Shown in pieces: positions 21,793-47,286 of a stretch of DNA of 64,000 nt. Origin of the DNA: a virus. Within the stretch, counting starts at the first letter, position 1; every line of letters begins with the position of its first letter. The position numbers were made by a program, and so were the translations under genes. Under the pieces are notes generated by a model, which saw nothing but the letters and a program-made list of their open reading frames with translations, was not told where the DNA came from and did no database searches. The stretch is from positions 1 to 64,000 of the IMG/VR virus record IMGVR_UViG_3300008267_000040; one strand, written 5' to 3'.

Positions 21793-22869
21793 TTAAGAAA
21801 GTGCGATTGCCATTACAATTGCTCTTACATCAACATACTTTTTATTGGCAGCATCCGAATCAGAAGTTGCAGTTCCAACATTTATAACTTTATTATTTAG
21901 TGCATTGATTGTTGAACCAACACTTAAAGAGCCTCCTATTACAGCACCATCATTGATTGAAATGCTTTCCGATAAAGATAAATTTGCAATATCATTTGAT
22001 ATTGTTAAATTTAAATTTTTATTTGCTGATAATGTTCTAGCAACTCCAACTGGACTTTGGTTACTTCTAAATCTTATAGTGGAAGAAACGTTTGTTGGAG
22101 TATTTCCAGTTAGATTAGCTGCATTTAATGAAGCATTTACTGAAGTGGCAGTAATAACACCAGATACATTTAAATTTCCACCTATTGTGGCAGAATTAAC
22201 AACTGTAAGATTTGAAAATGTATTTGGTGGTGCTGTTTCCTCTACTGATTTTCCAAATACAGTAAAAGATACTCTAGAGTTATCAGATGAAGAGTATACT
22301 AATGTTTGTCCGTTTGATAATTTTAAATTAGTTCTTACATAGGATTGATTTGGTGAAACCAATTCATCATATTCTACATACTGTGAACTATTAAAATCTA
22401 ATGCAGACGAAGTTGCAATTCCCAATCTTACTTTAGAATTTAAAGATCCAAGATTGCAAGCAACTACTGTTACTTCAACTGACCTTCCAGAAGGTGCTGT
22501 ATATAAAGCAAGTCTTTTATTTTTTGTAGATATTTCAGAGTTTAAAATTACAGAATCTGTTGTGTCTGCATATTCTTCACCATACAAAAGAAAGTTTGTA
22601 TTTAATGATGATGATTGTATAATTAAACTCTGTCCATTTCCAAAATAAATATTTTCAGATTCATATGTTTCTCCCCTCTCTAATACTGTAGAGGCAATGT
22701 AGTTCAAATCAATAGAATTTGTAGAAATACCTACTTTGATTCTTACTGGTTCAAAATTTTTATGTGAAATGGAAATTTTTCCATCAACTAAAATACCAGA
22801 TGAAGAGGTATATAATATAGTATTTTTATTTGGAACTGGTATTGAAGACGATAAAAGGCCAAAAGCCAT
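21793..22869 (-). CDS. Putative structural protein (358 aa) with two tandem ~100-aa beta domains and a fibre-like C-terminus
   Basis: Both domains resemble 34423..34743; C-terminal DAANKKYVD fibre motif; TATAAATA upstream. Confidence 0.7.
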   Translation of the reverse strand: MAFGLLSSSIPVPNKNTILYTSSSGILVDGKISISHKNFEPVRIKVGISTNSIDLNYIASTVLERGETYESENIYFGNGQSLIIQSSSLNTNFLLYGEEYADTTDSVILNSEISTKNKRLALYTAPSGRSVEVTVVACNLGSLNSKVRLGIATSSALDFNSSQYVEYDELVSPNQSYVRTNLKLSNGQTLVYSSSDNSRVSFTVFGKSVEETAPPNTFSNLTVVNSATIGGNLNVSGVITATSVNASLNAANLTGNTPTNVSSTIRFRSNQSPVGVARTLSANKNLNLTISNDIANLSLSESISINDGAVIGGSLSVGSTINALNNKVINVGTATSDSDAANKKYVDVRAIVMAIALS

Positions 22870-22891: not shown

Positions 22892-22899
22892 TATTTATA
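22892..22899 (-). promoter_or_regulatory. Late promoter TATAAATA in the 41-bp divergent gap
   Basis: tatttata at 22892-22899; overlaps a + strand TATAAT at 22896-22901. Confidence 0.7.
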
Positions 22900-22910
22900 A
22901 TTCACTTATT

Positions 22911-23696
22911 ATGATTATTCTTACTGGATATTCTGGATTTATTGGGAAAAAATTTCTTGAAAAAATAAATCAACCAATTATTAAAGTTGAAAAGGAGGAT
23001 TCTTTTAAATTCTTATCCTCCTTTACTGACTGGGACAAAGTATCATTAATTTTGCACCAAGGGGCAATTTCATCAACAACTGAACGTAATATTTCTACTC
23101 TGCATCACCATAATGTTGCATTTACTTTGATGCTGTTTGACTATGCCATTCAACACCAAATCCCAGTAAAGTTTGCATCATCTGCATCGGTTTATGGAAA
23201 TACTTTGGGTACTATTAATCCATTAAATCATTACGCAATCACTAAATTGCAAATTGATTATTTTATTCAAGACAATATCGATAAATTTTCTTCTATTCAA
23301 TCATTCAGATATTTTAATGTATACGGTCAAGGAGAAGACCATAAAGGAGACCAAGCATCACCAATATCAAAGTTCACTAAACAGATTAAAGAAACTGGTA
23401 AACTTAAACTATTTGAAGGTTCTGATAAATTTTTGAGGGACTTTATATGTGTTGATGATGTAGTTGATATTGTTATGAATAGTAATGTTCCTTCTGGAAT
23501 TTATGATTTGGGAACTGGTGAACCAATTTCATTTCAAGAAGTTGCAGAACTAGTCACAAAAAAAGAAGGAGGTGAGATTGAACTCATCCCCTTCCCAGAA
23601 CATCTTAAAGGTAAATATCAGGACTATACTAAAGCAAATATGCAATGGATTGACAAATATAAATTTACTACTGTCGAAGAGTATCTCCTTCGATAA
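22911..23696 (+). CDS. hldD: ADP-L-glycero-D-manno-heptose 6-epimerase-like extended SDR
   Basis: TGYSGFIG Rossmann motif, HQGAISSTTE, ASSASVYG, YAITK (YxxxK), FRYFNVYG.GE.HKG.QAS and RDFICVDD; only + strand gene in the window. Confidence 0.88.
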   Translation: MIILTGYSGFIGKKFLEKINQPIIKVEKEDSFKFLSSFTDWDKVSLILHQGAISSTTERNISTLHHHNVAFTLMLFDYAIQHQIPVKFASSASVYGNTLGTINPLNHYAITKLQIDYFIQDNIDKFSSIQSFRYFNVYGQGEDHKGDQASPISKFTKQIKETGKLKLFEGSDKFLRDFICVDDVVDIVMNSNVPSGIYDLGTGEPISFQEVAELVTKKEGGEIELIPFPEHLKGKYQDYTKANMQWIDKYKFTTVEEYLLR

Positions 23697-24039
23697 CTCT
23701 AATACTATCTTCATCAAAATGCTCTGTAGAAAATTCAAATAATTCAGTATCTTCTAGAGCATACATCCTATGTCTAAGTCCTACAGGAACATGGAATTTA
23801 TCACCTTTCCGTAGGACTCTTTTTTGTGCGAGTTCAATATTATCGTCTTCCCCATAGAATAATATAAGTTTTCCAGACTGAATATAAAATGTTTCGTCTT
23901 TAACTTTATGGTAATGCCAGGAGCATTTTTTTCCTTTTACAAAGTAAAGGAGTTTACCACAATACTGGTCACAATTTACAATCCACTTTTCAAATCCCCA
24001 TCCTTTGGGAACAAATTTAATTGAAGAAGTCATTAGCAT
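23668..24039 (-). CDS. Cupin-fold protein (sugar-phosphate isomerase-like)
   Basis: VPKGWG.E.W, CSWHYHKVKDETFY and H..VG.RHR metal-binding cupin motifs. Confidence 0.8.
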   Translation of the reverse strand: MLMTSSIKFVPKGWGFEKWIVNCDQYCGKLLYFVKGKKCSWHYHKVKDETFYIQSGKLILFYGEDDNIELAQKRVLRKGDKFHVPVGLRHRMYALEDTELFEFSTEHFDEDSIRVIEGDTLRQ

Positions 24040-24349
24040 TCATTCCTTTATCGTCTATGTATATATCTCCACTTGGTTTTCCAAGTATTAGTTCATGGTA
24101 CTTGCAACCCCATATTTCTAGTTGCATTTTAGTTAAGTTGTAAAACTTTTGGGTTGCTTTATCACTATCATCTTTACATCTTCCCATACCACGGGCAGTA
24201 AAATATTTAATTATATGTCCATCATCAAATAAAGAATTAATTTTGTTTATTCTTTCTGGAATTGGAGAACTCCCTTCATACTTACATGAAGAGCAATCAC
24301 CATTGGTACAAATAGTACCATCAATGTCTATTACAAATGTCATTAACAT
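24017..24349 (-). CDS. Small HAD-superfamily phosphatase (capsule-biosynthesis phosphatase-like)
   Basis: DIDGT (motif I), FTARG (II), GKP (III) and YIDDK (IV). Confidence 0.85.
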   Translation of the reverse strand: MLMTFVIDIDGTICTNGDCSSCKYEGSSPIPERINKINSLFDDGHIIKYFTARGMGRCKDDSDKATQKFYNLTKMQLEIWGCKYHELILGKPSGDIYIDDKGMNANDFFN

Positions 24350-25091
24350 CTTTTTGATTTAATACGTAAGTTCCTTGATTTTGAATTGCTATAGATGCTG
24401 CTCTATTTGCCAATGATATTGATTTGTTTATGTCATTTGTCTTTAAATATCCATATGTTAATGCTGCAAGAAAAGTATCCCCAGCACCAACGACATCATA
24501 TACATTAACTTTTTCTGCTGGGTAATGAGTGTCTCTATAGTAACAACCATCAGAACCTCTTGTGACAATTAAATTAAAGTATTCATATTTGTTTTCTAAT
24601 TTTTCATATTCAATATCATTTATTTTGATAAAACAATTTTCTTTATTTGGCAATACAGTTTTTTTACTATCAATAAAAACTGGAATACTAGATGACTCTG
24701 CAATTTCAAATAGTTTTTTAATTGTCAAATAACCTTTATTATAATCTGATATTACAATAGCATCAAAATTTGTACTGCTCACAGGAAGCATTAATGGTTT
24801 TATTGGTTCTTCATTATCAACCCTAAGAAGTTGTTGATTTGATTTTTCATCTATGAACCTAGTTTTAACTAGTTTTTCAGAGTTAGTCAGAAAAGTAACG
24901 TCTATATCAAATGCCTGAAGATTAAAACAGACATTTGCTGCCATTCCTGCTTTAGTTTCTATTTTGGAATAGTTCATCACTGGAACTGGTGCTTCTGGAT
25001 TTAGTCTTTCGCACCTCCCATAGATATATTCATCTTCGCAACTATCCCCTATCAATAATACTTTGAATGATTTTTGTTGAGGAGTATTCAT
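24321..25091 (-). CDS. hldA: D-glycero-D-manno-heptose-7-phosphate kinase (HldE/RfaE domain I, PfkB family)
   Basis: LLIGDSC.D.Y.YG..ERLNPEAPVPV, AANV, KTRF, QQLLRVD, ISDYNKG and DVVGAGDTF motifs. Confidence 0.88.
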   Translation of the reverse strand: MNTPQQKSFKVLLIGDSCEDEYIYGRCERLNPEAPVPVMNYSKIETKAGMAANVCFNLQAFDIDVTFLTNSEKLVKTRFIDEKSNQQLLRVDNEEPIKPLMLPVSSTNFDAIVISDYNKGYLTIKKLFEIAESSSIPVFIDSKKTVLPNKENCFIKINDIEYEKLENKYEYFNLIVTRGSDGCYYRDTHYPAEKVNVYDVVGAGDTFLAALTYGYLKTNDINKSISLANRAASIAIQNQGTYVLNQKDVNDICNRH

Positions 25092-25443
25092 TTATTCTAT
25101 CGAAAAATTTTAATTCTTTTGCATGTTGTGATCCTATAACTGGTTTATCCTTCCAATCAGATCCTACCACCATTATATCAGGTTTATAGTATTCTACAAG
25201 GTCTTCAAGTTCTCCATCACTATCAAATGTTCTGACCTCATCAATAGTAGAAAGATTTGCAAGCATAAACGCACGTTCCCATAAACAATTAATTGGTCTC
25301 GTTGGTCCTTTTTTCTCTTTTACTCTTTCATCAGAATCAATTGCTACTATCACATAATCACCTAAAGATTTTGCATATTGAAATAGAGAAAGATGTCCCG
25401 TATGTAGGACATCGAATGTGCCATTAACAAATACTTTTTTCAT
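25042..25443 (-). CDS. hldC: Heptose-1-phosphate nucleotidyltransferase (HldE/RfaE domain II-like, cytidylyltransferase fold)
   Basis: NGTFDVLHTGH (HxGH), DSDERV...KGPTRPIN, VGSDW and YSSTKII; overlaps the kinase gene. Confidence 0.82.
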   Translation of the reverse strand: MKKVFVNGTFDVLHTGHLSLFQYAKSLGDYVIVAIDSDERVKEKKGPTRPINCLWERAFMLANLSTIDEVRTFDSDGELEDLVEYYKPDIMVVGSDWKDKPVIGSQHAKELKFFDRINEYSSTKIIQSIIDRG

Positions 25444-27016
25444 TTGGAATATAAATCAATTTATTAATTTCTGGGAGATATAGATATTCAATTTTACTAG
25501 TACGAAGAGTATTGAGAGCATCTTCCATAGTATCAACAATAGTGTCACCTGCTTTATTGAATGATGTATTAAAAAGTATAGGGACTCCAGTTAAGTTATA
25601 AAACTCTGATATCAAATTATAGTAATTTTTATTTTGTTCTTTTTTCAGGGTCTGAATTCTACAGGTTCCATCAACATGAGTTATTGCTGGAATTTTTTCT
25701 GGGTATAAAACATTAACGGTATACATCATATTTGGACTTTCTATCAATTCTCCCATATCAAACCATTCATGAGTCCGTTCAAATAAAACAGTTCCAGCAA
25801 ATGGTCTGAAAGATTCCCTTCCTTTCACTTTATTTACTATATCTTTTCCATTAGAAACTCTAGGGTCAAATAAGATAGATCTATTGCCTAGTGCTCTTGG
25901 TCCAGACTCTGACCGTCCTTGTGCTATCGCAACTATATTTCCATCTACTATTAAGTTTGCTACTTCCTTTGGTAATATAGGTTTTTCTATTTCATTTTCA
26001 AGAAGAGTGTAGTCGTATTTTAATTTTTCTCCAAGATATAAAGTTGAAATTGATTTTCTATCAGTTAACCCACCACCTTCTCTTCCCATTTCACAGAAAT
26101 ATGCTGCTCCGAGGGAAATACCACTATCACTAGAGATTGGTTCAACATAAAGATTTACGTCTTTTGGTAATTTTTTTCTTAAATTAAAATTAGCAACGCA
26201 ATTTAAAGCACATCCACCAGTCCATACAAGATTTTTATTTCCAGTTAGTTCTAGTGTTTTTAATACAAAGTCTAATACATAGTCTTCAAAATCTTTTTGG
26301 ACTCTATATGCTATGTCTTCTTTTTCTATATTTTTTAACCAGGAATAATCTCTTAATGAATACCCAATTAGACCTTGTTTTTTTGCAGTATTTTTAAATA
26401 GTGTGGTTACTCCACCCCTTTCAGTAATTAATTTTTTAACTTTTGGGTTTTCTTTTCCATACGAAAATAAACCCATAGTTTTTCCACACTGAATTGGGTC
26501 CCAACCCAGATAAGAGGTTACTGCAGCATATACTTGTCCAGCACCAATAAATCCCTCACCAGAATAATTTTGTTTAATTGTATAAAAAGTTTGTGGTTTT
26601 GTAAAAGTAAAAATACTCTCAATTTCAATTTGTGTAGGTGATATATTAGCACCGCCCCCATCCATAACCATAACGGCAGCGTTATCAAATCCTGAATGAA
26701 CAAAACCACAAGTAGCATGAAGAAGATGATGATCCTGAGATAAATTCACGACATTTTTTACAGTAATGCCAAGAATTTGTGTTATGTACTTATAGTAAGT
26801 TTTTACAGAAGACTTATTTTCGTCTAAGTGTAAAAATGTATAAGCACATATATCAACGGTATCGGTGTATTCTTTAACTTTTTTTAAAGCATTTAATGGT
26901 GAGGAGTCGTATTTTTTATGAGTTATACGTTCTTCTTGTATATGAAAAACAACCTCACCGTCCTTTAATAAAGTTACAGATGCATCGTGTGTTATGTTAA
27001 ATGCAAGGATCCACAT
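25424..27016 (-). CDS. Carbamoyltransferase, NodU/CmcH family (copy 2)
   Basis: HDAS, EER, HHLLHA, DGGG, GKTMGL, GGCALNCVAN, GPRALGNRSIL, RPFAG, HVDGTCRIQT and NTSFN motifs. Confidence 0.93.
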   Translation of the reverse strand: MWILAFNITHDASVTLLKDGEVVFHIQEERITHKKYDSSPLNALKKVKEYTDTVDICAYTFLHLDENKSSVKTYYKYITQILGITVKNVVNLSQDHHLLHATCGFVHSGFDNAAVMVMDGGGANISPTQIEIESIFTFTKPQTFYTIKQNYSGEGFIGAGQVYAAVTSYLGWDPIQCGKTMGLFSYGKENPKVKKLITERGGVTTLFKNTAKKQGLIGYSLRDYSWLKNIEKEDIAYRVQKDFEDYVLDFVLKTLELTGNKNLVWTGGCALNCVANFNLRKKLPKDVNLYVEPISSDSGISLGAAYFCEMGREGGGLTDRKSISTLYLGEKLKYDYTLLENEIEKPILPKEVANLIVDGNIVAIAQGRSESGPRALGNRSILFDPRVSNGKDIVNKVKGRESFRPFAGTVLFERTHEWFDMGELIESPNMMYTVNVLYPEKIPAITHVDGTCRIQTLKKEQNKNYYNLISEFYNLTGVPILFNTSFNKAGDTIVDTMEDALNTLRTSKIEYLYLPEINKLIYIPNEKSIC

Positions 27017-27030
27017 TATTCATTTAGTAA

Positions 27031-28713
27031 TCAATTGGGAATATGAACAAGTTTTTGAATTTCTGGGAGGTACATATACTCAATATCACTTTTTTTCAGA
27101 GTATCAACACCATCTTCAACAGTCTCAACCAAGGGATCACCACCCAAATTAAAACTAGTATTGAAGAGAATTGGAACATCACTCAATTTTTCGAAGGCAT
27201 CAATCAGATTATAATAATGTTCGTTTTGTTCTGGAGTTACAGTCTGAATGCGACAAGTTCCGTCAACGTGAATGACTGAAGGAATCTTTTCTTCGACACC
27301 ATCTTGACACTTCACTGCATACATCATATGAGGAGTTTCTTCACGTCCAGTAAGGTCAAACCAATCATGCACACATTCTTTTTTGATTGAACATGCAAAT
27401 GGACGGAACCATTCACGACGTTTTACAGTGTTAACAATATCTTTACCGTCTTTAATAGTTGGGTCAAACAGAATTGAACGATTGCCAAGGGCACGAGGAC
27501 CACCTTCAGAACGACCTTGATACATGGTAACGATATTCCCTTCACGAATTAGTTGTGCAACTTCATCATAAGAAGTGTCAGTTACTTCAAGTCCATCTAG
27601 AGCATCTTCATATGTATTTGGATTATATTGAGGACCATAATAGACGGAAGACTGCTTTTGTGGTGTTTTATTTGAGGTTACCTTATGCCAAATATACTTT
27701 GCTCCACCAATTGATGTGCCACCATCATGGGAAATGGGTTCACAGTAGATGTTTAGATCTGGGAACTCTTTCCAATACTTATAATTGGCAACGCAGTTAA
27801 GACCATAACCACCACAAATAACAATATTCTTTTCTCCAGTTTCTTCGTGTGCCTTACGAATCAGTTCAACCATTCTATCCGAAGTTGCTTCTTGGATAGC
27901 ATATGCCATATCTTTTTGGATTTCTGTATACTCATTCTGTTTGTGATTTTCTACATCATCCATTAAGATTGAATATCTTCCAACATTTATTTTTGCAGCA
28001 TTTGGATATGTGGGAAGAATCACTTCTCTGTTTCCCCATCCATTAGCAAAGAATTTGGGAAGTGAATCATTTGGGTTTCCATATGGGGCAAGACCCATTA
28101 GTTTTCCTGCTTCGATTGCGGGAAAACCACAGTATTCAGTCACTGCTTCATACATTTTTGTATGACCAGGATATTCAGTTATAAAAATACCATCCTTAAC
28201 TTGATTGCAACCTATTGGTGCTTTTGTTCCGAGGTGTTTATAAACTACTTCGAAGTTTTTAGGATAAGATGCTTTAAAAATAGTTTCAAATTCAAATACA
28301 ACATCGTCAATTCCTTCAAATTGAAGAAAACTTCCAGCACCATCAGCAATTACACAAGCAGCGGTTTCAAATCCTGAGTTATAAAAACCACAGGCAGCGT
28401 GCATTTCATGATGAATGTTATCGATAAAATGCACTTCAAAGTCAAACTTTTTCTTTGCAAGTTTCCTTACCCATCCATGGTATAAATCTTCACCAGTCCA
28501 GTCTAACTGGGGTCCATGCCTATGGGTGTGACAAACAACCAAATGGTCAATATGGTCTACGTAATCAAATACCTTTTCAAGCCCCAATAGTGGAGAACCA
28601 TCATATTTAAATTTGGACAATCTTTCTTCTTCTAGATAGAAAATAACTTCACCATCTTTTAAAAGAGTTGTGCTTCCATTATGTCCACGAGCACATGCTG
28701 CAATAATAGTCAT
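27031..28713 (-). CDS. Carbamoyltransferase, NodU/CmcH family (copy 1)
   Basis: EEERLSK.K, HHEMHA, DGAG, GKLMGLAPYG, LNCVANY, DGGTSIG, GPRALGNRSIL, REWFRPFA and NTSFN motifs. Confidence 0.93.
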   Translation of the reverse strand: MTIIAACARGHNGSTTLLKDGEVIFYLEEERLSKFKYDGSPLLGLEKVFDYVDHIDHLVVCHTHRHGPQLDWTGEDLYHGWVRKLAKKKFDFEVHFIDNIHHEMHAACGFYNSGFETAACVIADGAGSFLQFEGIDDVVFEFETIFKASYPKNFEVVYKHLGTKAPIGCNQVKDGIFITEYPGHTKMYEAVTEYCGFPAIEAGKLMGLAPYGNPNDSLPKFFANGWGNREVILPTYPNAAKINVGRYSILMDDVENHKQNEYTEIQKDMAYAIQEATSDRMVELIRKAHEETGEKNIVICGGYGLNCVANYKYWKEFPDLNIYCEPISHDGGTSIGGAKYIWHKVTSNKTPQKQSSVYYGPQYNPNTYEDALDGLEVTDTSYDEVAQLIREGNIVTMYQGRSEGGPRALGNRSILFDPTIKDGKDIVNTVKRREWFRPFACSIKKECVHDWFDLTGREETPHMMYAVKCQDGVEEKIPSVIHVDGTCRIQTVTPEQNEHYYNLIDAFEKLSDVPILFNTSFNLGGDPLVETVEDGVDTLKKSDIEYMYLPEIQKLVHIPN

Positions 28714-28723
28714 AGTTTACTCC

Positions 28724-29884
28724 TCAAACTGTTTTCATTGTGTCCATAAATCCTAATGATTTTTTATTTCCATTAGATTTGATGCCATTCTCTTCTAGAA
28801 CTGCATCTATTGAATTAAGTGCTTTTTTTGTTTGCTCCGATGATGCTCCAGTAAGTTGAGGTGCTTGTTCCAACTTTGCGGGAGGCATACCACAAGATGC
28901 TTGTTGCTGTTCCATTGTTGGAAGAACAACAGAATCAGTCTTCTTTACATAATATCTATTCATCAATTTATCGACCGACTGAAGAATGACCGACTCAACT
29001 TTGTCATTCATTGCCATAATACCATCATTTGTTCTGCCACTTACTTCATCCATTGTAATACGAATTGGATCGTAGATTCTTAGACCTTCACCCATATCAA
29101 GAACTTCAAATTTATCACAATTTGGATAACTGATATTTTCTTTACAAGTTGCCCCAACTATAACTACAGCAGGAATATCCAAAGAATATGCCATATGCTG
29201 ACCAACAGAATCGCACCCAATGAAAAGATCTGACTCAGCAATAATACCTGCCCATTGTCTTAAGTCAATACCTCTTGGGCAAGCAACTGGATCTTTACAA
29301 CCTTCTTTCTGGAAGTCTAGTTCAACTTCCCCCATATAAATTACGGAATATTTCTTTTGTAGTTTTTTTATGATTGATACAACGTTAGTAAATTCAAAAC
29401 TTCTACCACTAGAATCAGTAATGAAATTGCCCATCACCTGAGTTCCACGTCCAAATGGTTGGAAGACTACAACTTTTTCTTTCTTTGTTTTTTGCTTAAC
29501 TTCCTCTACTACAAATTTACCATTAATCATTTCTTGTCTAGAAAGTTTAATGGTCGGTTTTTGAAGTTCTCGAACGCCTTTACCATTGATTTGAATATCA
29601 AAAGCCTGAGATAGATTACACTTTTGATTATAGTATTCCCAGATACGATATGGTTCTGTTGTAACGATGTCCATATCCTTCAGTTTATCTCTGAAGAGAT
29701 TTTTGTGCCAATGGTCGTAAACTTTTTGGAAAAGAGTTGGGTGTCCTTTGAAGAAATCTGTGCCTCCTTCGCAGACAATCAAAAAGTCTTTATCTGGGTT
29801 TTCTTCTTGGTATTTTTCAAATGCTGGTATCGAGCAAATCACTCTGCCTGCCCCACCATTTACAAAAAATGCTTTTGATCTCAT
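28724..29884 (-). CDS. Glycosyltransferase family 9 (heptosyltransferase-like, GT-B)
   Basis: N-terminal GGAGRVICSIPA (compare GT9 GIGD.....P); C-terminal DLRQWAGII..SDLFIGCDSVGQHMAYSLDIPAVVI (GT9 DSG..H.A signature). Confidence 0.8.
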   Translation of the reverse strand: MRSKAFFVNGGAGRVICSIPAFEKYQEENPDKDFLIVCEGGTDFFKGHPTLFQKVYDHWHKNLFRDKLKDMDIVTTEPYRIWEYYNQKCNLSQAFDIQINGKGVRELQKPTIKLSRQEMINGKFVVEEVKQKTKKEKVVVFQPFGRGTQVMGNFITDSSGRSFEFTNVVSIIKKLQKKYSVIYMGEVELDFQKEGCKDPVACPRGIDLRQWAGIIAESDLFIGCDSVGQHMAYSLDIPAVVIVGATCKENISYPNCDKFEVLDMGEGLRIYDPIRITMDEVSGRTNDGIMAMNDKVESVILQSVDKLMNRYYVKKTDSVVLPTMEQQQASCGMPPAKLEQAPQLTGASSEQTKKALNSIDAVLEENGIKSNGNKKSLGFMDTMKTV

Positions 29885-29927
29885 TTTATCGCCTCAAACA
29901 AATGATGATGTTTTAATTATACAATTT

Positions 29928-29936
29928 TATTTATTA
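29928..29936 (-). promoter_or_regulatory. Late promoter variant TAATAAATA upstream of the GT9/carbamoyl/heptose operon
   Basis: tatttatta on + strand, between the terminator and the GT9 start. Confidence 0.65.
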
Positions 29937-29939
29937 TAT

Positions 29940-29967
29940 AAAAAAAGGAGGGTTTTCCCCCTCCTTT
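29940..29967 (-). terminator. Rho-independent terminator after the Cys-rich/chaperone genes
   Basis: Minus strand reads AAAGGAGGG-GGAAAA-CCCTCC-TTTTTTT. Confidence 0.85.
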
Positions 29968-30000
29968 ATTCTAGCAGTTCAAAATTAAAACAGTCAATTA

Positions 30001-30879
30001 TTAGTTTTCTGATTCTTCTGTATTTTCTTCTTCTTCTGCTGAATCACTAATTTGTGGTGGTTCTATAGTCGAGATATCAATTTCTTTTCCGTCTCTATAC
30101 GGTTTACCATCAACATATTCAACTGGACCTTCTGGTTTTGGAGGTGCTTCTGTTCCTGTTTTGTTATCAATACCAAATGCATTTCCATTTGATGCACTCC
30201 AATTATCCAATCCCATTGGATTCGATGGGAATGGAACCATCCAAGGAGTATCTAAATAGTCTGCATATTTAACTGTAACATTATCAAGTGCAGTTAAATA
30301 TGCTGCCCATTTTGTCTTTTGTGTGGAAGTAAATCCAGTTGTTTCTACTTGTTTTTCTAGTTCTTTGATTGACTCTAAGGCATACAAAAGTTCTTCTTTT
30401 GTAATATGTGGTTTTTTCCATGGGAATGGTTTTTTCCATTCTTTAGTTTCGAAATCAAATTCAACCTCTCCCACTTCAATTGTTTTATTTGGATATGGTG
30501 GATTTGGTCTAGTATAAAATGGTTCTGTCTCTCCATCCAAAGTATACGTCTTATGTGGTACTTCGTCTATAGATGGACCTATTGAATTACCAACAACTGC
30601 TGCTAAAAGTAAGGGTTCTTCTTCTACGTCAATCAAGGCATAATCATATGCTAAACCAGAGAAAGTATCTGCAGCTGCGTCATTTTCTTCTCTAGTTCTA
30701 TCATCCTCATATAACATCCAACCCAACATGCTATTAATTTTTTTGGTATCTTTAAGTATCATAACATAAACTTTGTCTGGACCTTCATAAGTCCATTCAG
30801 CAGTCAAACCAAGTTTATTTGTTTGCAGCAAATAATCGTCTGGTATATTATATGTGAATTTTTTAGTCGTTTTTGCCAT
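30001..30879 (-). CDS. Acidic protein with a tail-fibre assembly chaperone-like C-terminal motif (292 aa)
   Basis: KWAAYLTALDNV...PWMVPFPSNP resembles the W..YRQALRD...WP..P chaperone motif; ATAAATA at 30905-30911. Confidence 0.55.
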   Translation of the reverse strand: MAKTTKKFTYNIPDDYLLQTNKLGLTAEWTYEGPDKVYVMILKDTKKINSMLGWMLYEDDRTREENDAAADTFSGLAYDYALIDVEEEPLLLAAVVGNSIGPSIDEVPHKTYTLDGETEPFYTRPNPPYPNKTIEVGEVEFDFETKEWKKPFPWKKPHITKEELLYALESIKELEKQVETTGFTSTQKTKWAAYLTALDNVTVKYADYLDTPWMVPFPSNPMGLDNWSASNGNAFGIDNKTGTEAPPKPEGPVEYVDGKPYRDGKEIDISTIEPPQISDSAEEEENTEESEN

Positions 30880-30921
30880 AATACTTAACCTTTCTCCTGT
30901 TTTTTATTTATTTAAATCTAA

Positions 30922-31881
30922 TTAAACATACCTTACGGTTACACGTACTGCACCTGCCCAACCAGGGTTTCCACAGCAGCAACCACCCGCACATACAGTT
31001 GCAGAAGCACCACCTAAACCAGGAACATAATTATGTTCAATATAACCACCAAAACCTAAATTACCTGCTGCCCATGTTTGATTCCAGTTTCCGCAAGTAG
31101 AATTTTCACATTGGTGTGATGAGACCCAACCACCTTTTTGGTTTACTAATCCTCCTGGATAAGCAATGTGGTACAAGTTCCAGCAACGGTTTTGGTGGCA
31201 GAACAGACCATAAGCACCAGGAAGACCAAATGCCCCACCATCCGCACCAAAATAACGAGCACAACATCCAACACACGAAGTATTAAGACCTACAATATTG
31301 TCAGTTCCACCAAATCCTTCAGAAGCACCTATTGCAGTTTTCCAATAACATTTCTTACCACAAAACTGAGTAATACAGAATGAGCAACCACCCCATCCAC
31401 CTTCAGCATAAAATCCAGTAAGTCCAGTTCCAGTTACTGTAGTGCATTCACCTCTTAAACCAGTAACATCAGGAACTTTACATGTTGGTGAACCAATTCT
31501 AAAGACATATGGTGTTCCAGATGCTACACCAACAACGGTTTTGAATGCATATGCACCAGCACCTCCAGGAATTCCGTAAGCACAGCAGCAAGCACCTGCT
31601 CCACCGCCACCAGCACCCCAAATTTCAAAGGTAATTGCAGTTGTACCTGCTCCAGGATATGAAGGAACTTTCCAGCAACAATATACAAAATTGTTAAAAC
31701 CCATCGTATAGTCACCTGCTGGTGCTTGACAACAAGTGGTTTCATAACTACCATCGGTATTACCGCACATGTGTGCCATGAAATAAGTTACTTGACCCTC
31801 TCTGAGTCTTCCAATACCACCTGAATGAATTCCTGTGAAATTTGGTTCTGCTGAACCCAACAGAGTTCTAAGATTTGCCAT
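30922..31881 (-). CDS. Cys/Gly-rich putative fibre-tip/adhesin protein, paralogue 3 (25 Cys in 319 aa)
   Basis: FEIWGAGGGGAGACCC...GGAGAYAFK, F.AEGG, YFGADGG and GAVRVT motifs; ATAAATA at 31904-31910. Confidence 0.75.
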   Translation of the reverse strand: MANLRTLLGSAEPNFTGIHSGGIGRLREGQVTYFMAHMCGNTDGSYETTCCQAPAGDYTMGFNNFVYCCWKVPSYPGAGTTAITFEIWGAGGGGAGACCCAYGIPGGAGAYAFKTVVGVASGTPYVFRIGSPTCKVPDVTGLRGECTTVTGTGLTGFYAEGGWGGCSFCITQFCGKKCYWKTAIGASEGFGGTDNIVGLNTSCVGCCARYFGADGGAFGLPGAYGLFCHQNRCWNLYHIAYPGGLVNQKGGWVSSHQCENSTCGNWNQTWAAGNLGFGGYIEHNYVPGLGGASATVCAGGCCCGNPGWAGAVRVTVRYV

Positions 31882-31906
31882 TTTTAATATTTCCTCTTAA
31901 AGGTAT

Positions 31907-32869
31907 TTATCTATAGGTGATTCTAATTAGACCAGCTGTTCCAGGTGCAGCAACGCAGCAACCACCAGCACATACAGTTACGGAGGGGTGACCTGCTCCT
32001 CTCATTCCCATACTACAGTTACCATTTCCAGGCCATTCACCCAACCAACATTGTGCTCTTTCATTGCAGCAAGCATTTCCTGGATTTCTATTAATAACAT
32101 ATCTTGTTTCTCTGTCACGGACTCCGCCTGGTTGAGGAATTCCAAGTCTTACAAAGCAATTATTTCCACAAATACAATCTACACGGAACCATCCCATTCT
32201 TCCAGGAACACCGAAATCTGCTCCATAAAAACAAGCACAATCACAAGCTCTGCAAGTACCAGGAACTGGATCTAGTGAATAGCAACCTAATGAGTTTCTT
32301 GGTGTTGTTCCAGTTGTTCCTCCAGGACCATATGTTCCAGTTATATTAGAACCATGGGCATCATGGTAAATGAAACAACATGTTCTGCCTGGCATTCCAC
32401 CTTCAGCACAGAAGTTAGTAAGTCCACATCCAGTAATCCATGTTTTGCATCCAGTACTACCTAAGCAGGCTGCTGAGCAAGTTGATGGTGGACTAAGGCA
32501 CCATAGATAACAAAGACCCCCTAAGGAATTTAGTCCCATGTCACTTGCACAAAGAGTCTTCATTGCATATGCACCAGAACCACTTGGAGTTCCTTGCATA
32601 CAGCAACATCCTCCTGCACCACCTCCTCCACCACCCCAAATGTGGAATTGGACGGTAGTTACTCCAGGATAGACACAAAATCCACCACACCACTGCCTGT
32701 AATTGGTATCACAGGGAGTAAGCCAACAGTGTCCACCAAAAAACATATCAAAACCCTCTACAAGAGTATTGCCCCATCCATTTCCCCATTGGGTGGAACG
32801 AAATCCGCACACTCTTTGTTGGAGTTCAACTTGATTTTCTGTATTTAATAATTCTCTTAATCTAGCCAT
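31907..32869 (-). CDS. Cys/Gly-rich putative fibre-tip/adhesin protein, paralogue 2 (33 Cys in 320 aa)
   Basis: FHIWGGGGGGAGGCCC...GSGAYAMK, NFCAEGG, FYGAD and GLIRITY motifs. Confidence 0.75.
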   Translation of the reverse strand: MARLRELLNTENQVELQQRVCGFRSTQWGNGWGNTLVEGFDMFFGGHCWLTPCDTNYRQWCGGFCVYPGVTTVQFHIWGGGGGGAGGCCCMQGTPSGSGAYAMKTLCASDMGLNSLGGLCYLWCLSPPSTCSAACLGSTGCKTWITGCGLTNFCAEGGMPGRTCCFIYHDAHGSNITGTYGPGGTTGTTPRNSLGCYSLDPVPGTCRACDCACFYGADFGVPGRMGWFRVDCICGNNCFVRLGIPQPGGVRDRETRYVINRNPGNACCNERAQCWLGEWPGNGNCSMGMRGAGHPSVTVCAGGCCVAAPGTAGLIRITYR

Positions 32870-32882
32870 TTAAAATCTCCTA

Positions 32883-34022
32883 TTAACCGTAAGTGATACG
32901 AACCATTCCAGAATGTCCTGGACCACCACAATAGCAGTTTCCACTTTCTGAAGAAGCTGATCTTCCACCCAACCCAACAATACCTTCTTCTGCACGTAGA
33001 GAACTATGTCCAAAGTAATCTGAGAATCTATATTGGGCACCATCTGCACCAGCAAGATTCATAGATGCATGTCTATATGGAAGATAACCACCTCTAGTAT
33101 TAATTAGTCCACCAGGGAATGGATGATACTGAAGAACCATACACCAGTCCATTGCTTGATTGCATGGTGAACCTAACAGTCCAGGAAGACCTCTTGCTCC
33201 ACCATCAGCACCATAGAATGGAGCACAATAAGCACATTGATTGGTGCATAGACCACCGTAGCAAGGATTGAGTCCATGACCATAATAAACTCTACGTCCA
33301 TTTGAACCGAATGTAGTTCCAGCACCAATTAAATCATATTGGAGTTCTGTTACGTCTTGATACTCAAGTGGATAATTTCCAATACCACCACCAGGAGTAA
33401 AGCAAGAATGTCCACAATTTCCCCAGTGAGGACCACAAGCTTCACACATGTGTCCACCATATGGCATTGCTTGGCTTTCATTACATGAGTGACAATAATC
33501 ACATATGCAATACATTTCAAAAGTGCTTTCTCTGTTCATGCAGTTTGAACAGAATGATGCACCACCAAAACCACCTTCCGCACAGAAGTTGTTCAATCCG
33601 CATCCAACTACAAATGACTTACATCCACGAGACCCCCACTGGACTGGTGTGCAGCAAGAAGCAGATGCAACACATATTTCGTATGGCTGTCCACCTAAAT
33701 CAAATCCAGTGCAAATACACTTAAAAGCATATGCACCAGATCCACCAGGAGTTCCCCACATGCAGCAACATGTACCAGGTCCTCCACCACCTCCACCCCA
33801 AATTTCGAACTTGATAAAGGTAGTTCCCGCTGGTGGTCTCCAAACATAGCATTCAAAATACCTAAATCTATTTACAGCGCAATGGGTTCTGAATTGTACT
33901 TGATGATACTCAGAACCAGGAAAACTAATAGGTGTTGATGGAACCGTACTAATTCCTGTTGTTTGGAATGACGCAATTTGTTGTTGGTCGGTATAACTAA
34001 TTAAATCTCTTAAATTTGCCAT
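32883..34022 (-). CDS. Cys/Gly-rich putative fibre-tip/adhesin protein, paralogue 1 (31 Cys in 379 aa)
   Basis: FEIWGGGGGGPGTCCC...GGSGAYAFK, NFCAEGG, FYGADGG and GMVRITY motifs. Confidence 0.75.
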   Translation of the reverse strand: MANLRDLISYTDQQQIASFQTTGISTVPSTPISFPGSEYHQVQFRTHCAVNRFRYFECYVWRPPAGTTFIKFEIWGGGGGGPGTCCCMWGTPGGSGAYAFKCICTGFDLGGQPYEICVASASCCTPVQWGSRGCKSFVVGCGLNNFCAEGGFGGASFCSNCMNRESTFEMYCICDYCHSCNESQAMPYGGHMCEACGPHWGNCGHSCFTPGGGIGNYPLEYQDVTELQYDLIGAGTTFGSNGRRVYYGHGLNPCYGGLCTNQCAYCAPFYGADGGARGLPGLLGSPCNQAMDWCMVLQYHPFPGGLINTRGGYLPYRHASMNLAGADGAQYRFSDYFGHSSLRAEEGIVGLGGRSASSESGNCYCGGPGHSGMVRITYG

Positions 34023-34053: not shown

Positions 34054-34392
34054 TCATGCGTTCAGAAGAACCCATCCATATTGTGAGCCAGAATAAAGAA
34101 GATCTACAGCATTATTAGGAATATTTAATATTAGGGGCTCATTCAAGTTAGCAATTTTTGTAGTTGTTGTATTGACTCCTACAGTGCAGAAATTTGTTCT
34201 CCAGTTCCCTGTTGGGTCAACGATGGAAACTCTATCTCCAATATTTGCTGTATCAGCACTTGGAATATTAATTGTAATAGCAGTGCTTGTTGTATCAACA
34301 AGATAAGTTCTGCCAGATATTGCAGTAAATGGTGTAGTACTTACAGTTACAACTTCTGTCGTAAATGTTGGTGCAGAAATGAAACGTCCCAT
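34054..34392 (-). CDS. Small fibre-associated beta protein (112 aa)
   Basis: YLVDTT..AITINIP...GDRVSIVD..GNW; paralogous to the C-half of 38747..39196; GGAG RBS. Confidence 0.7.
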   Translation of the reverse strand: MGRFISAPTFTTEVVTVSTTPFTAISGRTYLVDTTSTAITINIPSADTANIGDRVSIVDPTGNWRTNFCTVGVNTTTTKIANLNEPLILNIPNNAVDLLYSGSQYGWVLLNA

Positions 34393-34422: not shown

Positions 34423-34743
34423 TTAAAGTGTGGATTGCTCAACACCGTAAACGTTAACGCTTACATTGCTGGAATTAGAGAAAGCAATTACTCTTTTGCC
34501 AGCATCCAAAACTAATCCAGTTCTCTCCAGAACACCATTGGGTGCAATAAAAGAATTAAATTCAATAAATTCAGCATTTGTTGGTGTTGCGGTTGCTGCA
34601 ATTGCTACACGAACAGCAATGTCAGTAGCATTTCTATTTGCCACGTTAACATTAACGTATGCAAGTGTGTTAGTAGGAACAGTATAAACTGTTGTGAAAG
34701 TTGTAGAAGCAAGTGCTACTTGTCCTAGTACTCCAGATGCCAT
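34423..34743 (-). CDS. Small structural beta-sandwich protein (106 aa)
   Basis: Stand-alone copy of the domain duplicated in 21793..22869; GGAG RBS; TATAAATA at 34785-34792. Confidence 0.7.
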   Translation of the reverse strand: MASGVLGQVALASTTFTTVYTVPTNTLAYVNVNVANRNATDIAVRVAIAATATPTNAEFIEFNSFIAPNGVLERTGLVLDAGKRVIAFSNSSNVSVNVYGVEQSTL

Positions 34744-34784: not shown

Positions 34785-34792
34785 TATTTATA
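34785..34792 (-). promoter_or_regulatory. Late promoter TATAAATA upstream of the 106-aa, 112-aa and Cys-rich genes
   Basis: tatttata at 34785-34792. Confidence 0.75.
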
Positions 34793-47082: not shown

Positions 47083-47286
47083 TTAGTTATTTATCCTTTC
47101 TACCAATAATTTTAGGCAATCTTTTATTTCTTGGATATCTGATTTTATGTTATCCAATTCTTCCCGTTCTTGTATTTTTCTATTTTTTATTTTCATATAC
47201 TCATTGTATTCGTGTTCATTGCAATTCAAAACTGCATTGGTCTCTTCATCTCTAAAGAGACCATTACTATCTTTTATGGGTATCAT
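47083..47286 (-). CDS. Small coiled-coil protein (67 aa)
   Basis: L.RD..T.AVLN...IK.DI.EIK..L; ATGA overlap with the 2516-aa gene. Confidence 0.7.
   Translation of the reverse strand: MIPIKDSNGLFRDEETNAVLNCNEHEYNEYMKIKNRKIQEREELDNIKSDIQEIKDCLKLLVERINN

Follow-up and report, generated by a model that had tools for sequence, protein, structure and literature searches.

Why would a virus of marine cyanobacteria carry enzymes for sugar activation and carbamoyl transfer among its tail-fibre genes? The window, the whole 64,000-nucleotide stretch of DNA that we analysed, is a fragment of a T4-like cyanomyovirus. Its minus strand encodes three Cys/Gly-rich paralogues, a Cys-free 292-aa partner, a GT9-fold protein and two NodU/TobZ-type carbamoyltransferases, together with an HldE-like kinase and nucleotidyltransferase, a 110-aa HAD phosphatase and a metal cupin, while an HldD-like epimerase is encoded on the plus strand. 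An earlier note on this DNA had named these genes, and we found every one of them where it had placed them. Such genes have previously been annotated as 'LPS genes' of unknown function (PMC3037559, PMC2984593, PMC12801897). The best explanation we can offer is that they belong to a conserved module with which T4-like cyanophages mature or decorate their tail fibres, a reading to which we give slightly less than even chances.

Fibre genes and Cys/Gly-rich proteins

The structural genes of the module are as follows.

34804..38337, minus strand: large tail-fibre protein, 1177 aa, with CBM_5_12 repeats (Pfam CBM_5_12, 56 bits); heads the conserved module
34423..34743, minus strand: small fibre-associated protein, 106 aa (phrog_11338 'tail fiber protein', E 1.2e-10); position conserved in related loci
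34054..34392, minus strand: small fibre-associated protein, 112 aa (weak matches to several tail/baseplate PHROGs); position conserved
32883..34022, minus strand: Cys/Gly-rich paralogue A, 379 aa, 8.2% Cys, 17.2% Gly (phrog_4205, E 7e-59)
31907..32869, minus strand: Cys/Gly-rich paralogue B, 320 aa, 10.3% Cys, 18.1% Gly (phrog_4205, E 1.6e-53)
30922..31881, minus strand: Cys/Gly-rich paralogue C, 319 aa, 7.8% Cys, 20.1% Gly (phrog_4205, E 3.8e-53)
30001..30879, minus strand: Cys-free partner, 292 aa, with an acidic tail (phrog_9740, E 1.9e-32)
21793..22869, minus strand: next tail-fibre gene, 358 aa (phrog_11338, E 9.5e-49); closes the module

The large tail-fibre gene lies upstream in nearly all related loci, and the genes syntenic with it in S-CAM1, S-CAM3, S-SSM7 and P-SSM2 are 'tail fiber protein' genes. 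The description of the Cys-rich proteins as being of fibre-tip type is supported by structure prediction. In the PDB, the AF2 model of paralogue B (pLDDT 75, with residues 21-35 and 169-194 below 50) comes closest to the fiber of cyanophage Pam3 (7ypx_A, E 4.5e-5), the tail tip of Bxb1 (9d93) and the glycine-rich domains of ALK/LTK. Tip proteins of the polyglycine-II type (Pam3 fiber 7ypx/7yfw and Bxb1 9d93) are the top matches, at E 4.5e-5 to 8e-4, with TM-scores of only 0.35-0.52. As modelled, then, the fold of the Cys-rich proteins would resemble the glycine-rich domains of phage fibres and tail tips, a likeness that is new here. Like the Gly-rich tip proteins, they are encoded directly after fibre shaft genes, and Pfam Gly_rich_2 matches several relatives and one window paralogue, A (24.9 bits, barely above the cut-off), which is a putative fibre-tip adhesin with a glycine-rich domain. 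The family differs from the Cys-poor Gly-rich proteins of other cyanophages in its 8-12% Cys and its CC and CCC motifs, which are not seen in the latter. The 292-aa partner is probably a fibre assembly chaperone or adaptor; related loci have it once or twice, in every case interspersed with the Cys-rich genes or following them, and its language-model neighbours, a lead only, are the Phage_tail_APC and Caudo_TAP families (0.88-0.89).

Transcription signals

The late-promoter consensus NATAAATA (PMC2984593) occurs 21 times on the coding strand of the window and a single time on the opposite strand. Of the coding-strand copies, most lie 29-51 nt upstream of gene starts; paralogue C has its own copy, 30 nt upstream. 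Four further signals frame the locus.

34785..34792, minus strand: late promoter TATAAATA, 49 nt upstream of the small fibre genes and Cys-rich genes
29944..29967, minus strand: intrinsic terminator hairpin (9-bp stem and T run), which ends the structural transcription unit and precedes AATAAATA
29928..29935, minus strand: late-type promoter AATAAATA, serving the enzyme operon; the GT start lies 51 nt downstream
22892-22899, minus strand: promoter TATAAATA of the 358-aa tail-fibre gene, before 21793..22869

The enzyme block thus has a late-type promoter of its own behind a terminator, as the earlier note had claimed. Most related loci have a hairpin at the same position as this terminator, and [TCA]ATAAATA or CTAAATA at the site matching AATAAATA.

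These signals bear on the standard reading in the literature of such genes as 'LPS genes' (PMC3037559, PMC2984593, PMC12801897). On that view the enzymes would act on the surface of the infected cell, making or changing a glycan (of LPS, capsule or S-layer) that bears heptose and carbamoyl groups; protection from superinfection or from grazing would be one possible purpose, and the position beside fibre genes would be an accident of a recombination hot spot. The late promoter of the window's operon would be late for a superinfection barrier. On the other hand, in a sub-group of inverted-type loci, which have the core genes and no heptose genes within 10 kb, the GT and carbamoyltransferase unit stands behind a sigma-70-like promoter rather than a late one, which favours remodelling of the cell surface.

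A GT9-like protein with an altered catalytic position

28724..29884, minus strand: GT9-fold transferase-like protein, 386 aa (AF2 model pLDDT 91.6; Foldseek top matches all GT9)

The GT-B fold spans residues 1-313 of this protein and is followed by a C-terminal tail that varies. The model matches 3tov with Z 24.4, WaaF with 21.6, TibC with 20.2 and WaaC with 19.6, while other GT-B families reach 12.7 at most. In sequence it falls below the family thresholds (16.5 bits for Pfam GT9, where 22 are required, and 25 for NCBIfam, where 170 are). In its N-terminal GGAGR motif, Arg14 occupies the place of the WaaC catalytic Asp13, and Arg (rarely Lys) takes this place in nearly all of 79 representatives, so that catalysis is not assured. 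The proposal that this is a GT9 transferase therefore stands as to fold, which is clearly GT9, but not as to a canonical enzyme; the combination of a modelled GT9 structure (Z 24) with Arg for the catalytic Asp is new here.

The WaaC/WaaF group (2gt1, 2h1h, 1psw, 3tov) shares with the phage protein the two-domain GT-B fold (Z 19-24 over about 255-281 residues), a donor-site motif, D(T/S)GxxH, resembling the invariant phage DSxGQH, and, in the window, linkage to an ADP-heptose pathway. Unlike WaaC and WaaF, the phage protein is encoded in fibre modules and not in LPS core clusters. TibC/AAH (4rap, 4rb4), GT9-type enzymes that transfer heptose from ADP-heptose onto a protein, an adhesin, match the model as strongly as WaaC does, and there too the gene adjoins that of the presumed protein substrate. 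TibC differs in an N-terminal extension absent from the phage protein, the model aligning to TibC residues 96-396 only; its catalytic Asp110 probably falls at about the position of Arg14, as judged from alignment ranges only. The targets also differ, being Ser-rich beta-helix repeats for TibC/AAH and presumably the Cys/Gly-rich fibre proteins here.

Could the protein have kept the GT-B fold alone, as a fibre assembly factor or structural adaptor, with the carbamoyltransferase and heptose genes acting elsewhere? The lost Asp would fit such a role, and plant NDH has a GT9-like subunit that is not an enzyme yet scores level with WaaC against the model (Z 19.6). Moreover, a homologue in Vibrio phages is shortened to 244 aa, and one in Aeromonas phage HJ05 occupies the position of the fibre chaperone in P2-like phages. 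Against this, D225, S226, H230 and many cleft-facing polar residues show no or almost no variation in 76 sequences with identity down to 25% (D225 and H230 being invariant), the Vibrio phage homologue exceeds the Pfam GT9 cut-off (25.4 against 22 bits), and a heptose kinase is present in all seven isolate species that have the GT. We regard a purely structural role as quite unlikely.

The carbamoyltransferases

27031..28713, minus strand: carbamoyltransferase 1 (CT1), 560 aa (Carbam_trans_C 1.2e-57, Carbam_trans_N 1e-21)
25424..27016, minus strand: carbamoyltransferase 2 (CT2), 530 aa, an accessory paralogue (both Carbam_trans_N and Carbam_trans_C)

Both proteins have the Kae1-like and YrdC-like domains of NodU, TobZ, GdmN and NovN (E 1e-21 to 1e-57) and are 41% identical to each other. 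CT1 matches 7xb6 (2.6e-51), TobZ (3.6e-47), GdmN and NovN in the PDB; its N-terminal motif is HNGS, in contrast to the usual HDAS found in CT2. Since NCBIfam NodU scores are 134-146 bits against a cut-off of 1000, neither is a NodU orthologue. CT1 lies behind the GT in 80 of 80 IMG/VR loci that reach that far, whereas only roughly one related locus in three has CT2.

A carbamoyltransferase of this kind might modify fibre proteins directly, at a side-chain hydroxyl, amine or thiol, with a separate role for the GT and no carbamoyl-sugar. HypF, a related enzyme, carbamoylates a protein cysteine, and the phage proteins match it weakly. NodU-type carbamoyltransferases are found in 146 phage records and, in the contexts examined, stand in structural modules that lack this GT: in P-RSM4 and S-SSM5 they converge with the fibre module, and in ACG-2014d they lie between gp24 and gp3. 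Yet the closest characterised relatives, TobZ, GdmN, NovN and NodU, O-carbamoylate hydroxyls of small molecules or sugars, and in the module the carbamoyltransferase always follows the GT directly or with one SGNH-like ORF between. Direct carbamoylation of protein is in our view improbable. In favour of fibre decoration, the fibre proteins of P-RSM4 and S-SSM5, which have the carbamoyltransferase and no GT, are Gly-rich but Cys-poor.

The heptose genes

25042..25443, minus strand: HldE-C/HldC-like heptose-1-phosphate nucleotidyltransferase, 133 aa (CTP_transf_like, 60.6 bits)
24321..25091, minus strand: HldE-N/HldA-like heptose-7-phosphate kinase, 256 aa (PfkB, 76.6 bits)
24017..24349, minus strand: minimal HAD phosphatase, 110 aa, with a DIDGT motif (phrog_1238, E 2.7e-28)
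23668..24039, minus strand: metal-binding cupin, 123 aa (Cupin_2, 35.9 bits; HxH...E...H ligands in the sequence)
22911..23696, plus strand, opposite in transcription: HldD-like ADP-heptose 6-epimerase, 261 aa (Epimerase, 78.5 bits)

The kinase (rfaE_dom_I, 160.8 bits, cut-off 345), the nucleotidyltransferase (best match rfaE_dom_II, 112.9 bits, cut-off 181.5) and the epimerase (heptose_epim, 203.7 bits, cut-off 274.6) all score below the NCBIfam equivalog cut-offs. The HAD phosphatase, which matches TIGR01689 capsule phosphatase at 22.5 bits, is a putative stand-in for GmhB; the name of phrog_1238, 'phosphoheptose isomerase', is a misnomer for it. No SIS/GmhA gene was found in the window or in five complete relatives, and the pathway thus falls short of the complete textbook one. 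The cupin, with weak PDB matches to L-ribose and D-lyxose isomerases, is a candidate that probably replaces the GmhA isomerase.

Of 121 genomes from the host family, only 18 have an HldE-like kinase, a new finding that explains why a phage would carry its own heptose pathway. Cyanobacterial LPS is without heptose and Kdo (PMC4515613), that is, without the inner core normally extended by GT9 enzymes, and this, like the missing WaaC catalytic Asp, counts against remodelling of the host surface. Classical remodelling of host LPS, an alternative in the earlier note, is unlikely.

Linkage and distribution

Because accessory genes accumulate in the fibre regions of T4-like phages, adjacency by itself can mislead. 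Five isolate lineages (S-CAM3, S-CAM1, S-SSM7, P-SSM2 and Sf-FS3) have the Cys-rich genes together with the partner, the GT and CT1, and this core is complete in all of 80 IMG/VR loci with enough upstream flank, including those in which the GT and carbamoyltransferase genes are inverted relative to the fibre genes. Three loci reached from the other side, through Cys-rich proteins 29-31% identical to those of the window, have the same order and 4-6 paralogues. An invariant core of Cys-rich proteins (2-6 copies), partner, GT9-like gene and one carbamoyltransferase is new here, and a P4H-type 2OG oxygenase, of a protein-modifying class, is often inserted in the module of relatives.

Co-occurrence with the Cys-rich family, which had been suggested for the enzyme cluster, accordingly holds for the GT9-like gene and one carbamoyltransferase but not for the whole block. 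The heptose genes are a separable sub-module, also new here: in the sub-group without them near the core they are missing or located elsewhere, two contigs of 176-185 kb have neither kinase nor nucleotidyltransferase, and other cyanophages have heptose genes without this GT, inside polysaccharide-type clusters. In S-SM2 and S-T4 these are large sugar/GT clusters adjoining hli and ferredoxin genes, and in Bellamy they lie near pstS, in each case away from fibre genes. Such settings favour a role at the cell surface.

Distant GT homologues (26-41% identical), in a further new observation, lie among the tail-fibre genes of the unrelated Aeromonas phage HJ05 and 31 N4-like Vibrio phages, adjoining Cys-enriched tail proteins (4.1% and 4.4% Cys, respectively). 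No heptose genes were found near these homologues; Aeromonas and Vibrio hosts produce ADP-heptose themselves. Both the presence of GT homologues in the fibre modules of unrelated phages and the fact that the GT and carbamoyltransferase pair has kept its place beside the partner and the Cys-rich genes despite inversions and deep divergence argue against surface remodelling, which we consider unlikely overall.

Hypermodification of DNA bases with sugar and carbamoyl groups, to evade restriction, has precedent in phage GT-B enzymes that glucosylate DNA. A DNA-modification role has been suggested for cyanophage GTs (PMC12801897). We find this scarcely credible here, given that the fold is specifically GT9 and not of the T4 DNA-glucosyltransferase type, that no hydroxymethylase or other base-activating gene was found in the block, and that the consistent neighbours in three unrelated phage groups are fibre genes.

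A proposed role in fibre decoration

Gene content, folds, conserved linkage, promoter type and the rarity of the HldE-like kinase in the host family are established; the donor, the acceptor and the arrival of any modification on the virion are what we infer. Judged from the genes, decoration of the fibre with carbamoyl-heptose is the best reading, held tentatively at just under an even chance. Late in infection the enzyme operon would be transcribed from its own NATAAATA promoter. The accessory sub-module of the window (kinase, nucleotidyltransferase, mini-HAD phosphatase, HldD-like epimerase and metal cupin) would act as a phage-borne ADP-heptose pathway, converting sedoheptulose-7-phosphate to ADP-heptose. 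The GT9-like enzyme would then move heptose onto the tip proteins of the fibre, or onto another fibre component closely bound to them, at Ser/Thr, Cys or some other acceptor, and the carbamoyltransferase would O-carbamoylate the sugar, using carbamoyl phosphate and ATP. The virion proteomes in print (S-SM1, S-PM2 and Syn9) are of phages without the Cys-rich/GT/carbamoyltransferase module.

The known precedent for self-glycosylation by phages is that reportedly described by Freeman et al. in 2023 (cited in PMC12801897), in which mycobacteriophage GTs encoded beside structural genes modify virion proteins; that system is said to use other GT families and host-supplied sugars, with capsid and tail-tube targets. 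The cyanophage module, known from genes alone, differs in having its own nucleotide-sugar pathway and a carbamoyltransferase, and in being tied to fibre-tip proteins. The placement of sugar and carbamoyl enzymes beside tip genes suggests that the virus may chemically decorate the host-recognising part of its particle.

Gene content and late promoters

The window is low in G+C (about 0.31-0.43), and its genes, which include T4-type neck, tail-fibre and virion genes, lie almost all on the minus strand. The source IMG/VR record is 103.6 kb long, with a completeness estimate of 50%. Among cultured phages its nearest relatives are S-CAM1 and S-CAM3 (Kyanoviridae), with GT9-fold transferase-like proteins (GT) 61-66% identical to that of the window; megablast of the enzyme/fibre block against the phage collection gave no match. 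All genes named in the earlier note were found in the window, and those central to the argument are as follows.

Features of the fibre and enzyme block
32883-34022, minus strand: Cys-rich paralogue A, 8.2% Cys, Gly in the 17-20% range (phrog_4205)
31907-32869, minus strand: Cys-rich paralogue B, 10.3% Cys, Gly in the 17-20% range (phrog_4205)
30922-31881, minus strand: Cys-rich paralogue C, 7.8% Cys, Gly in the 17-20% range (phrog_4205)
30001-30879, minus strand: partner, Cys-free, 292 aa, 3' of the three Cys-rich genes (phrog_9740)
29967-29944: terminator with a 9-bp stem, between partner and enzyme operon
51 nt 5' of the GT start codon, after the terminator: AATAAATA box
28724-29884, minus strand: GT, 386 aa
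27031-28713, minus strand: carbamoyltransferase CT1
25424-27016, minus strand: carbamoyltransferase CT2

The enzyme operon is tightly packed, comprising GT, the two carbamoyltransferases, an HldE-C-like nucleotidyltransferase, an HldE-N-like kinase, a 110-aa HAD phosphatase and a cupin; the HldD-like epimerase lies on the opposite strand.

The late promoter reported for cyanomyoviruses, NATAAATA (PMC2984593), occurs 21 times on the coding (minus) strand of the window and once on the plus strand. The coding-strand copies (for example at 47095, 46014, 39226, 34792, 31911, 30912, 29935, 22899, 16725, 9814, 6732 and 2273) lie mostly 29-51 nt 5' of gene starts, and precede the small fibre gene, Cys-rich paralogue C, the partner, GT and the next fibre gene. 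Given this strand bias and spacing, GT included, the late-type promoter that had been claimed for the enzyme block is real as a sequence feature, and at the level of sequence the distribution of NATAAATA is a usable late-promoter map for the source contig. The variant CTAAATA is found 28 nt 5' of three additional window genes. A sigma-70-like promoter (TTGACT, 18-nt spacer, TAGAAT, upstream TG) is also present at 29968-29997 on the minus strand, overlapping the end of the partner gene just 5' of the terminator hairpin, and a similar box is seen in a related locus, L013.

GT and one carbamoyltransferase accompany the Cys-rich genes

The gene order of the window is repeated in S-CAM3, S-CAM1, S-SSM7, P-SSM2 and Sf-FS3, which represent four named genera and one unclassified isolate, and each of these phages encodes two or three proteins with 8-12% Cys 5' of GT. 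Searching by tblastn with the Cys-rich proteins gave matches in S-CAM1 and S-CAM3 only, probably owing to the low-complexity filter; the paralogues of S-SSM7, P-SSM2 and Sf-FS3 were identified by composition and unfiltered blastp. The GT family as a whole numbers 3889 proteins in a set of 5.8 billion (445 clusters at 50% identity) and is found at no fewer than 552 IMG/VR loci. Among the best 80 of these loci, all those with sufficient flank carry the whole core, consisting of a fibre shaft, small fibre genes, two to four Cys-rich genes, one or two partner copies, GT and CT1.

The linkage persists where the arrangement has changed. In six related loci (L074, L083-L086 and L088) the pair of GT and carbamoyltransferase is inverted with respect to the fibre genes, with a sigma-70-like promoter before it, yet still adjoins them. 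Searching from Cys-rich proteins only 29-31% identical to those of the window, three loci out of three had 4-6 Cys-rich paralogues, the partner, GT and CT1. P-RSM4 and S-SSM5, by comparison, have a carbamoyltransferase beside the fibre module without GT, and their Gly-rich fibre proteins contain at most 1% Cys. CT2 is present in about a third of loci. We therefore conclude that the Cys-rich proteins go with GT plus one carbamoyltransferase, and that CT2 is accessory. The co-occurrence of enzyme cluster and Cys-rich family proposed in the earlier note thus holds for GT and one carbamoyltransferase; the heptose genes are separable from it.

Relatives of the module carry additional genes. One is a P4H-type 2OG-Fe(II) oxygenase (PF13640), which recurs among the relatives and is absent from the window block. 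In 17 of 71 loci its gene lies in the gap between partner and GT; in L184 and L185 it follows CT1, and in S-SSM7 and Sf-FS3 it precedes GT. This oxygenase may hydroxylate fibre proteins. Its recurrence fits the theme of protein modification, though such oxygenases are common in cyanophages anyway. Loci without nearby heptose genes have a further ORF of about 300 aa between GT and CT1, with no Pfam match. Its structure neighbours in the Atlas, among them DUF6071 and GDSL/SGNH-like proteins, hint that it may be a sugar esterase or acyltransferase. In one such locus, L087, the gene just 5' of GT encodes a carbon-nitrogen hydrolase (PF00795, 33 bits).

Additional genes in related loci (locus handle and position)
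L021:6368-6937, P4H-type oxygenase (PF13640)
L050:3756-4328, P4H-type oxygenase (PF13640)
L059:9340-9924, P4H-type oxygenase (PF13640)
L184:11226-11822, P4H-type oxygenase (PF13640)
L185:17751-18341, P4H-type oxygenase (PF13640)
L003:9314-9973, P4H-type oxygenase (PF13640)
L005:9308-9940, P4H-type oxygenase (PF13640)
L078:6503-7453, ORF between GT and CT1
L083:11001-11918, ORF between GT and CT1
L074:10996-11916, ORF between GT and CT1
L087:10935-11834, ORF between GT and CT1
L087:9135-9956, carbon-nitrogen hydrolase

Cys-rich proteins, partner and carbamoyltransferases

Paralogue A alone of the three passes the Pfam threshold for Gly_rich_2 (PF21722; 24.9 bits against 24.3), a domain also found in several Cys-rich homologues. 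For the AF2 model of paralogue B (pLDDT 75), the closest structures are those of the cyanophage Pam3 fiber, tail-tip proteins of Bxb1 and the glycine-rich domains of ALK/LTK, the matches to Pam3 and Bxb1 being significant but modest (TM 0.35-0.52). This predicted fold supports a fibre-tip role for the Cys-rich proteins. For the partner, a protein language model points to a possible resemblance to tail-assembly chaperone families, which we treat as a lead only.

CT1 and CT2, which are 41% identical, have the Kae1-like N-terminal and YrdC-like C-terminal domains of the NodU/CmcH/TobZ family, the two proteins scoring 78 and 91 bits for Carbam_trans_N and 195 and 191 bits for Carbam_trans_C, far over the cut-offs. 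Against solved structures, CT1 matches TobZ (3.6e-47), GdmN, NovN and another carbamoyltransferase at 1e-45 to 1e-51. There are carbamoyltransferase homologues in 146 phage records. In Synechococcus phage ACG-2014d (L183:5479-6978) a NodU-type carbamoyltransferase gene belongs to the head/neck late module, where gp24 (head vertex) and gp3 flank it, and in the contexts examined (ACG-2014d, P-RSM4 and S-SSM5) carbamoyltransferases are found within or beside structural modules. That these enzymes carbamoylate protein directly is a reading that in part overlaps the others, and to which we give a slim chance.

GT has the GT9 fold and donor site with an altered catalytic position

The AF2 model of GT (pLDDT 91.6) is closest to GT9 structures, with VIA Z scores of 24.4 (3tov), 21.6 (WaaF), 20.2 (the protein heptosyltransferase TibC) and 19.6 (WaaC). 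The best GT-B protein outside GT9 reaches 12.7, and the top Foldseek matches are GT9 throughout. By sequence, GT falls below the thresholds of Pfam PF01075 (16.5 bits against 22) and of the NCBIfam heptosyltransferase model TIGR02201 (25.5 bits against 170), phmmer of GT against PDB sequences gave no match, and the GT family profile finds WaaF in the PDB at E 0.014. The likeness is limited to the donor-site motif: hhalign pairs CDSVGQHMA of GT with VDTGLSHLTAA of WaaC and NDSGLMHVAAA of WaaF, at the C-terminal nucleotide-sugar site (the D261...H266 region of WaaC), and D225 and H230 are invariant in 76 GT family sequences.

The catalytic Asp is not matched in GT, which has Arg14 at the place of WaaC Asp13 (start of helix 1), the catalytic base of that enzyme. 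Since hhalign against the single WaaC and WaaF sequences aligned the C-terminal domain only, the Asp-to-Arg substitution rests on the shared fold and on a local N-terminal alignment, in which GRVICSIPAF of GT pairs with GDVLHTLPAL of WaaC and Arg14 falls on Asp13 (score 33, attained by 3 of 2000 shuffles). Judged from alignment ranges, Asp110 of TibC lies at about the same position. The surrounding motif GGxGR (rarely K) is present in nearly all of 79 family representatives. From the modelled fold, the donor motif and the Arg in place of Asp, the family appears to be GT9 by fold and donor site and not by catalytic base. The assignment as a GT9 transferase made in the earlier note is thus borne out for fold and donor-site motif, and fails on the family score thresholds and the catalytic Asp. 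A GT9-like but non-enzymatic subunit of plant NDH matches the GT model with Z 19.6, and the altered catalytic position together with this match brings in a non-catalytic assembly role for GT, which, set against the invariant donor-site residues, we regard as decidedly unlikely. The C-terminal 70 residues of GT (residues 314-386; 28724-28945, minus strand) form a low-confidence Gln/Ala/Pro-rich extension that is missing from most family members, which are about 300-335 aa long.

The heptose genes form a separable sub-module

The kinase and the nucleotidyltransferase have the HldE models as their best NCBIfam matches (160.8 bits against an equivalog cut-off of 345, and 112.9 against 181.5, respectively), and the epimerase has HldD (203.7 against 274.6). 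A SIS-fold GmhA (PF13580) was found neither in the 103.6-kb record nor in five complete related genomes. The cupin that co-occurs with the pathway has a full metal-ligand set (HxH...E...H) and is weakly similar to cupin sugar isomerases; it is a reasonable candidate for a replacement of the GmhA isomerase. Because the metal-ligand set is complete, we judged a role as an RmlC-type epimerase to be less likely. The module also offers a testable explanation of the proposed replacement of heptose-pathway enzymes by the cupin and the mini-HAD.

The heptose kinase is present in all seven isolate species that have GT. It is also present without GT in five more (S-SM2, S-T4, Sf-CH5, Sf-CH8 and P-TIM68), and S-SM2 and S-T4, the two examined, have the heptose genes inside large sugar/glycosyltransferase clusters, that of S-T4 adjoining hli and ferredoxin genes. 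Bellamy carries its cupin, 65% identical, in a sugar cluster of this kind. Beside such clusters stands the linkage of GT and CT1 to fibre genes, and that the enzymes remodel the host surface we consider unlikely. Sullivan et al. (2010) observed that T4-GC 304, 305, 307 and 308 travel together, and left function versus 'stuffer DNA' undecided (PMC3037559).

Conversely, no heptose gene is found within 10 kb in L074, L083-L086, L088, L076-L079 and L087. One contig with such a core carries HldE-like and epimerase genes 12-14 kb away, another has an epimerase-like gene only, and a third, of 176 kb, has no heptose genes, the CheckV completeness of these contigs being about 50%. Thus the heptose genes are a sub-module separable from the core.

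GT homologues in unrelated phages and the supply of donor

Homologues of GT occur in tail modules beyond the cyanophages. In the P2-like tail module of Aeromonas phage HJ05 (L006), a homologue of 26% identity is flanked by putative fibre genes on one side and the sheath gene on the other, and is directly 3' of a gene for a 559-aa protein (L006:6303-7982) with 4.1% Cys, the C-terminal half of which is rich in Cys and Gly/Ala. The layout of this protein resembles that of the cyanophage Cys-rich proteins, with 21 of its 23 Cys in the C-terminal half, a VTLVGGGA start and a GIVEITWL end. In 31 N4-like Vibrio phages, a homologue that exceeds the Pfam GT9 threshold (25.4 bits against 22) has a beta-helix tail fibre on one side and, on the other, a tail-tip protein of 925 aa with 4.4% Cys. 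No Cys-rich tail protein of HJ05 or SBP1 was matched significantly by the HMM of the Cys-rich family; the likeness is compositional only. Neither heptose nor carbamoyltransferase genes are present at the HJ05 and Vibrio phage GT loci.

Cyanobacterial LPS has been reported to be without heptose and Kdo (PMC4515613). In the GTDB family of marine Synechococcus and Prochlorococcus to which Synechococcus MIT S9451 belongs, no more than 18 of 121 genomes encode an HldE-like kinase (E <=1e-30), which makes the synthesis of NDP-heptose a sporadic trait of the hosts, and probably an island-borne one. The host genes are bifunctional, with open frames of about 500 aa scoring 190-335 bits. Vibrio and Aeromonas, on the other hand, make ADP-heptose for their LPS cores. 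Cyanophages, unlike these proteobacterial phages, would carry the donor pathway beside GT because most of their hosts are without an HldE-like kinase.

Interpretation

We think it likely that the GT/carbamoyltransferase unit acts on or with the fibre tips: it is linked to the Cys-rich genes, the promoter of the enzyme operon is of the late type, the Cys-rich proteins are predicted to fold like fibre proteins, and GT family members are similarly placed in other lineages. As to how, heptose would be transferred to a fibre protein and O-carbamoylation would follow, a mechanism that we find plausible while stopping short of calling it probable. Our main doubts concern the loss of the canonical Asp, the loci without heptose genes, the sigma-70-like promoter in the inverted sub-group and, further, the presence of the same heptose genes in polysaccharide-type clusters elsewhere. 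Modification of phage DNA was rejected on grounds of fold, the absence of base-activating genes from the block and the gene neighbours, and we consider it highly improbable.

More tentatively, and with considerable reservation, we suggest that a widespread and hitherto unrecognised, fibre-dedicated GT9-like family (GGxGR, Arg for the catalytic Asp) glycosylates Cys-rich receptor-binding proteins of T4-like, N4-like and HJ05-type phages, by a chemistry that may differ from that of LPS heptosyltransferases (for example S-linked heptose on Cys, or a base-free reaction as in those eukaryotic O-fucosyltransferases that have Cys-rich domains as targets). Cyanophages would then have imported the ADP-heptose pathway, with a cupin replacing GmhA, and a carbamoyltransferase, most of their hosts not making the donor. 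Precedents exist for virion glycosylation, in mycobacteriophages, and for the heptosylation of proteins, by TibC and AAH.

The module genes have been in GenBank records since 2005, annotated as LPS genes or hypothetical proteins, and published virion proteomes are of S-SM1, S-PM2 and Syn9, phages without the module. Our literature search found no report linking the pair of GT9-like protein and carbamoyltransferase to Cys-rich fibre proteins, none of the GGxGR variant of GT9 or its occurrence in fibre modules of unrelated phages, and no host-based explanation of a phage-borne heptose pathway. Cyanophage genomes have had these genes on record for twenty years as 'LPS genes' with no known use, or even as stuffer DNA. 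If they instead decorate the fibre tips, a new and easily recognised family (GT9 fold, GGxGR) would be a marker of fibre glycosylation across several unrelated groups of phages, these would be the first phages with a complete nucleotide-sugar pathway for modifying their own particle, and a carbamoylated heptose glycan of the phage's own making would be needed for host recognition by some of the ocean's most abundant viruses.
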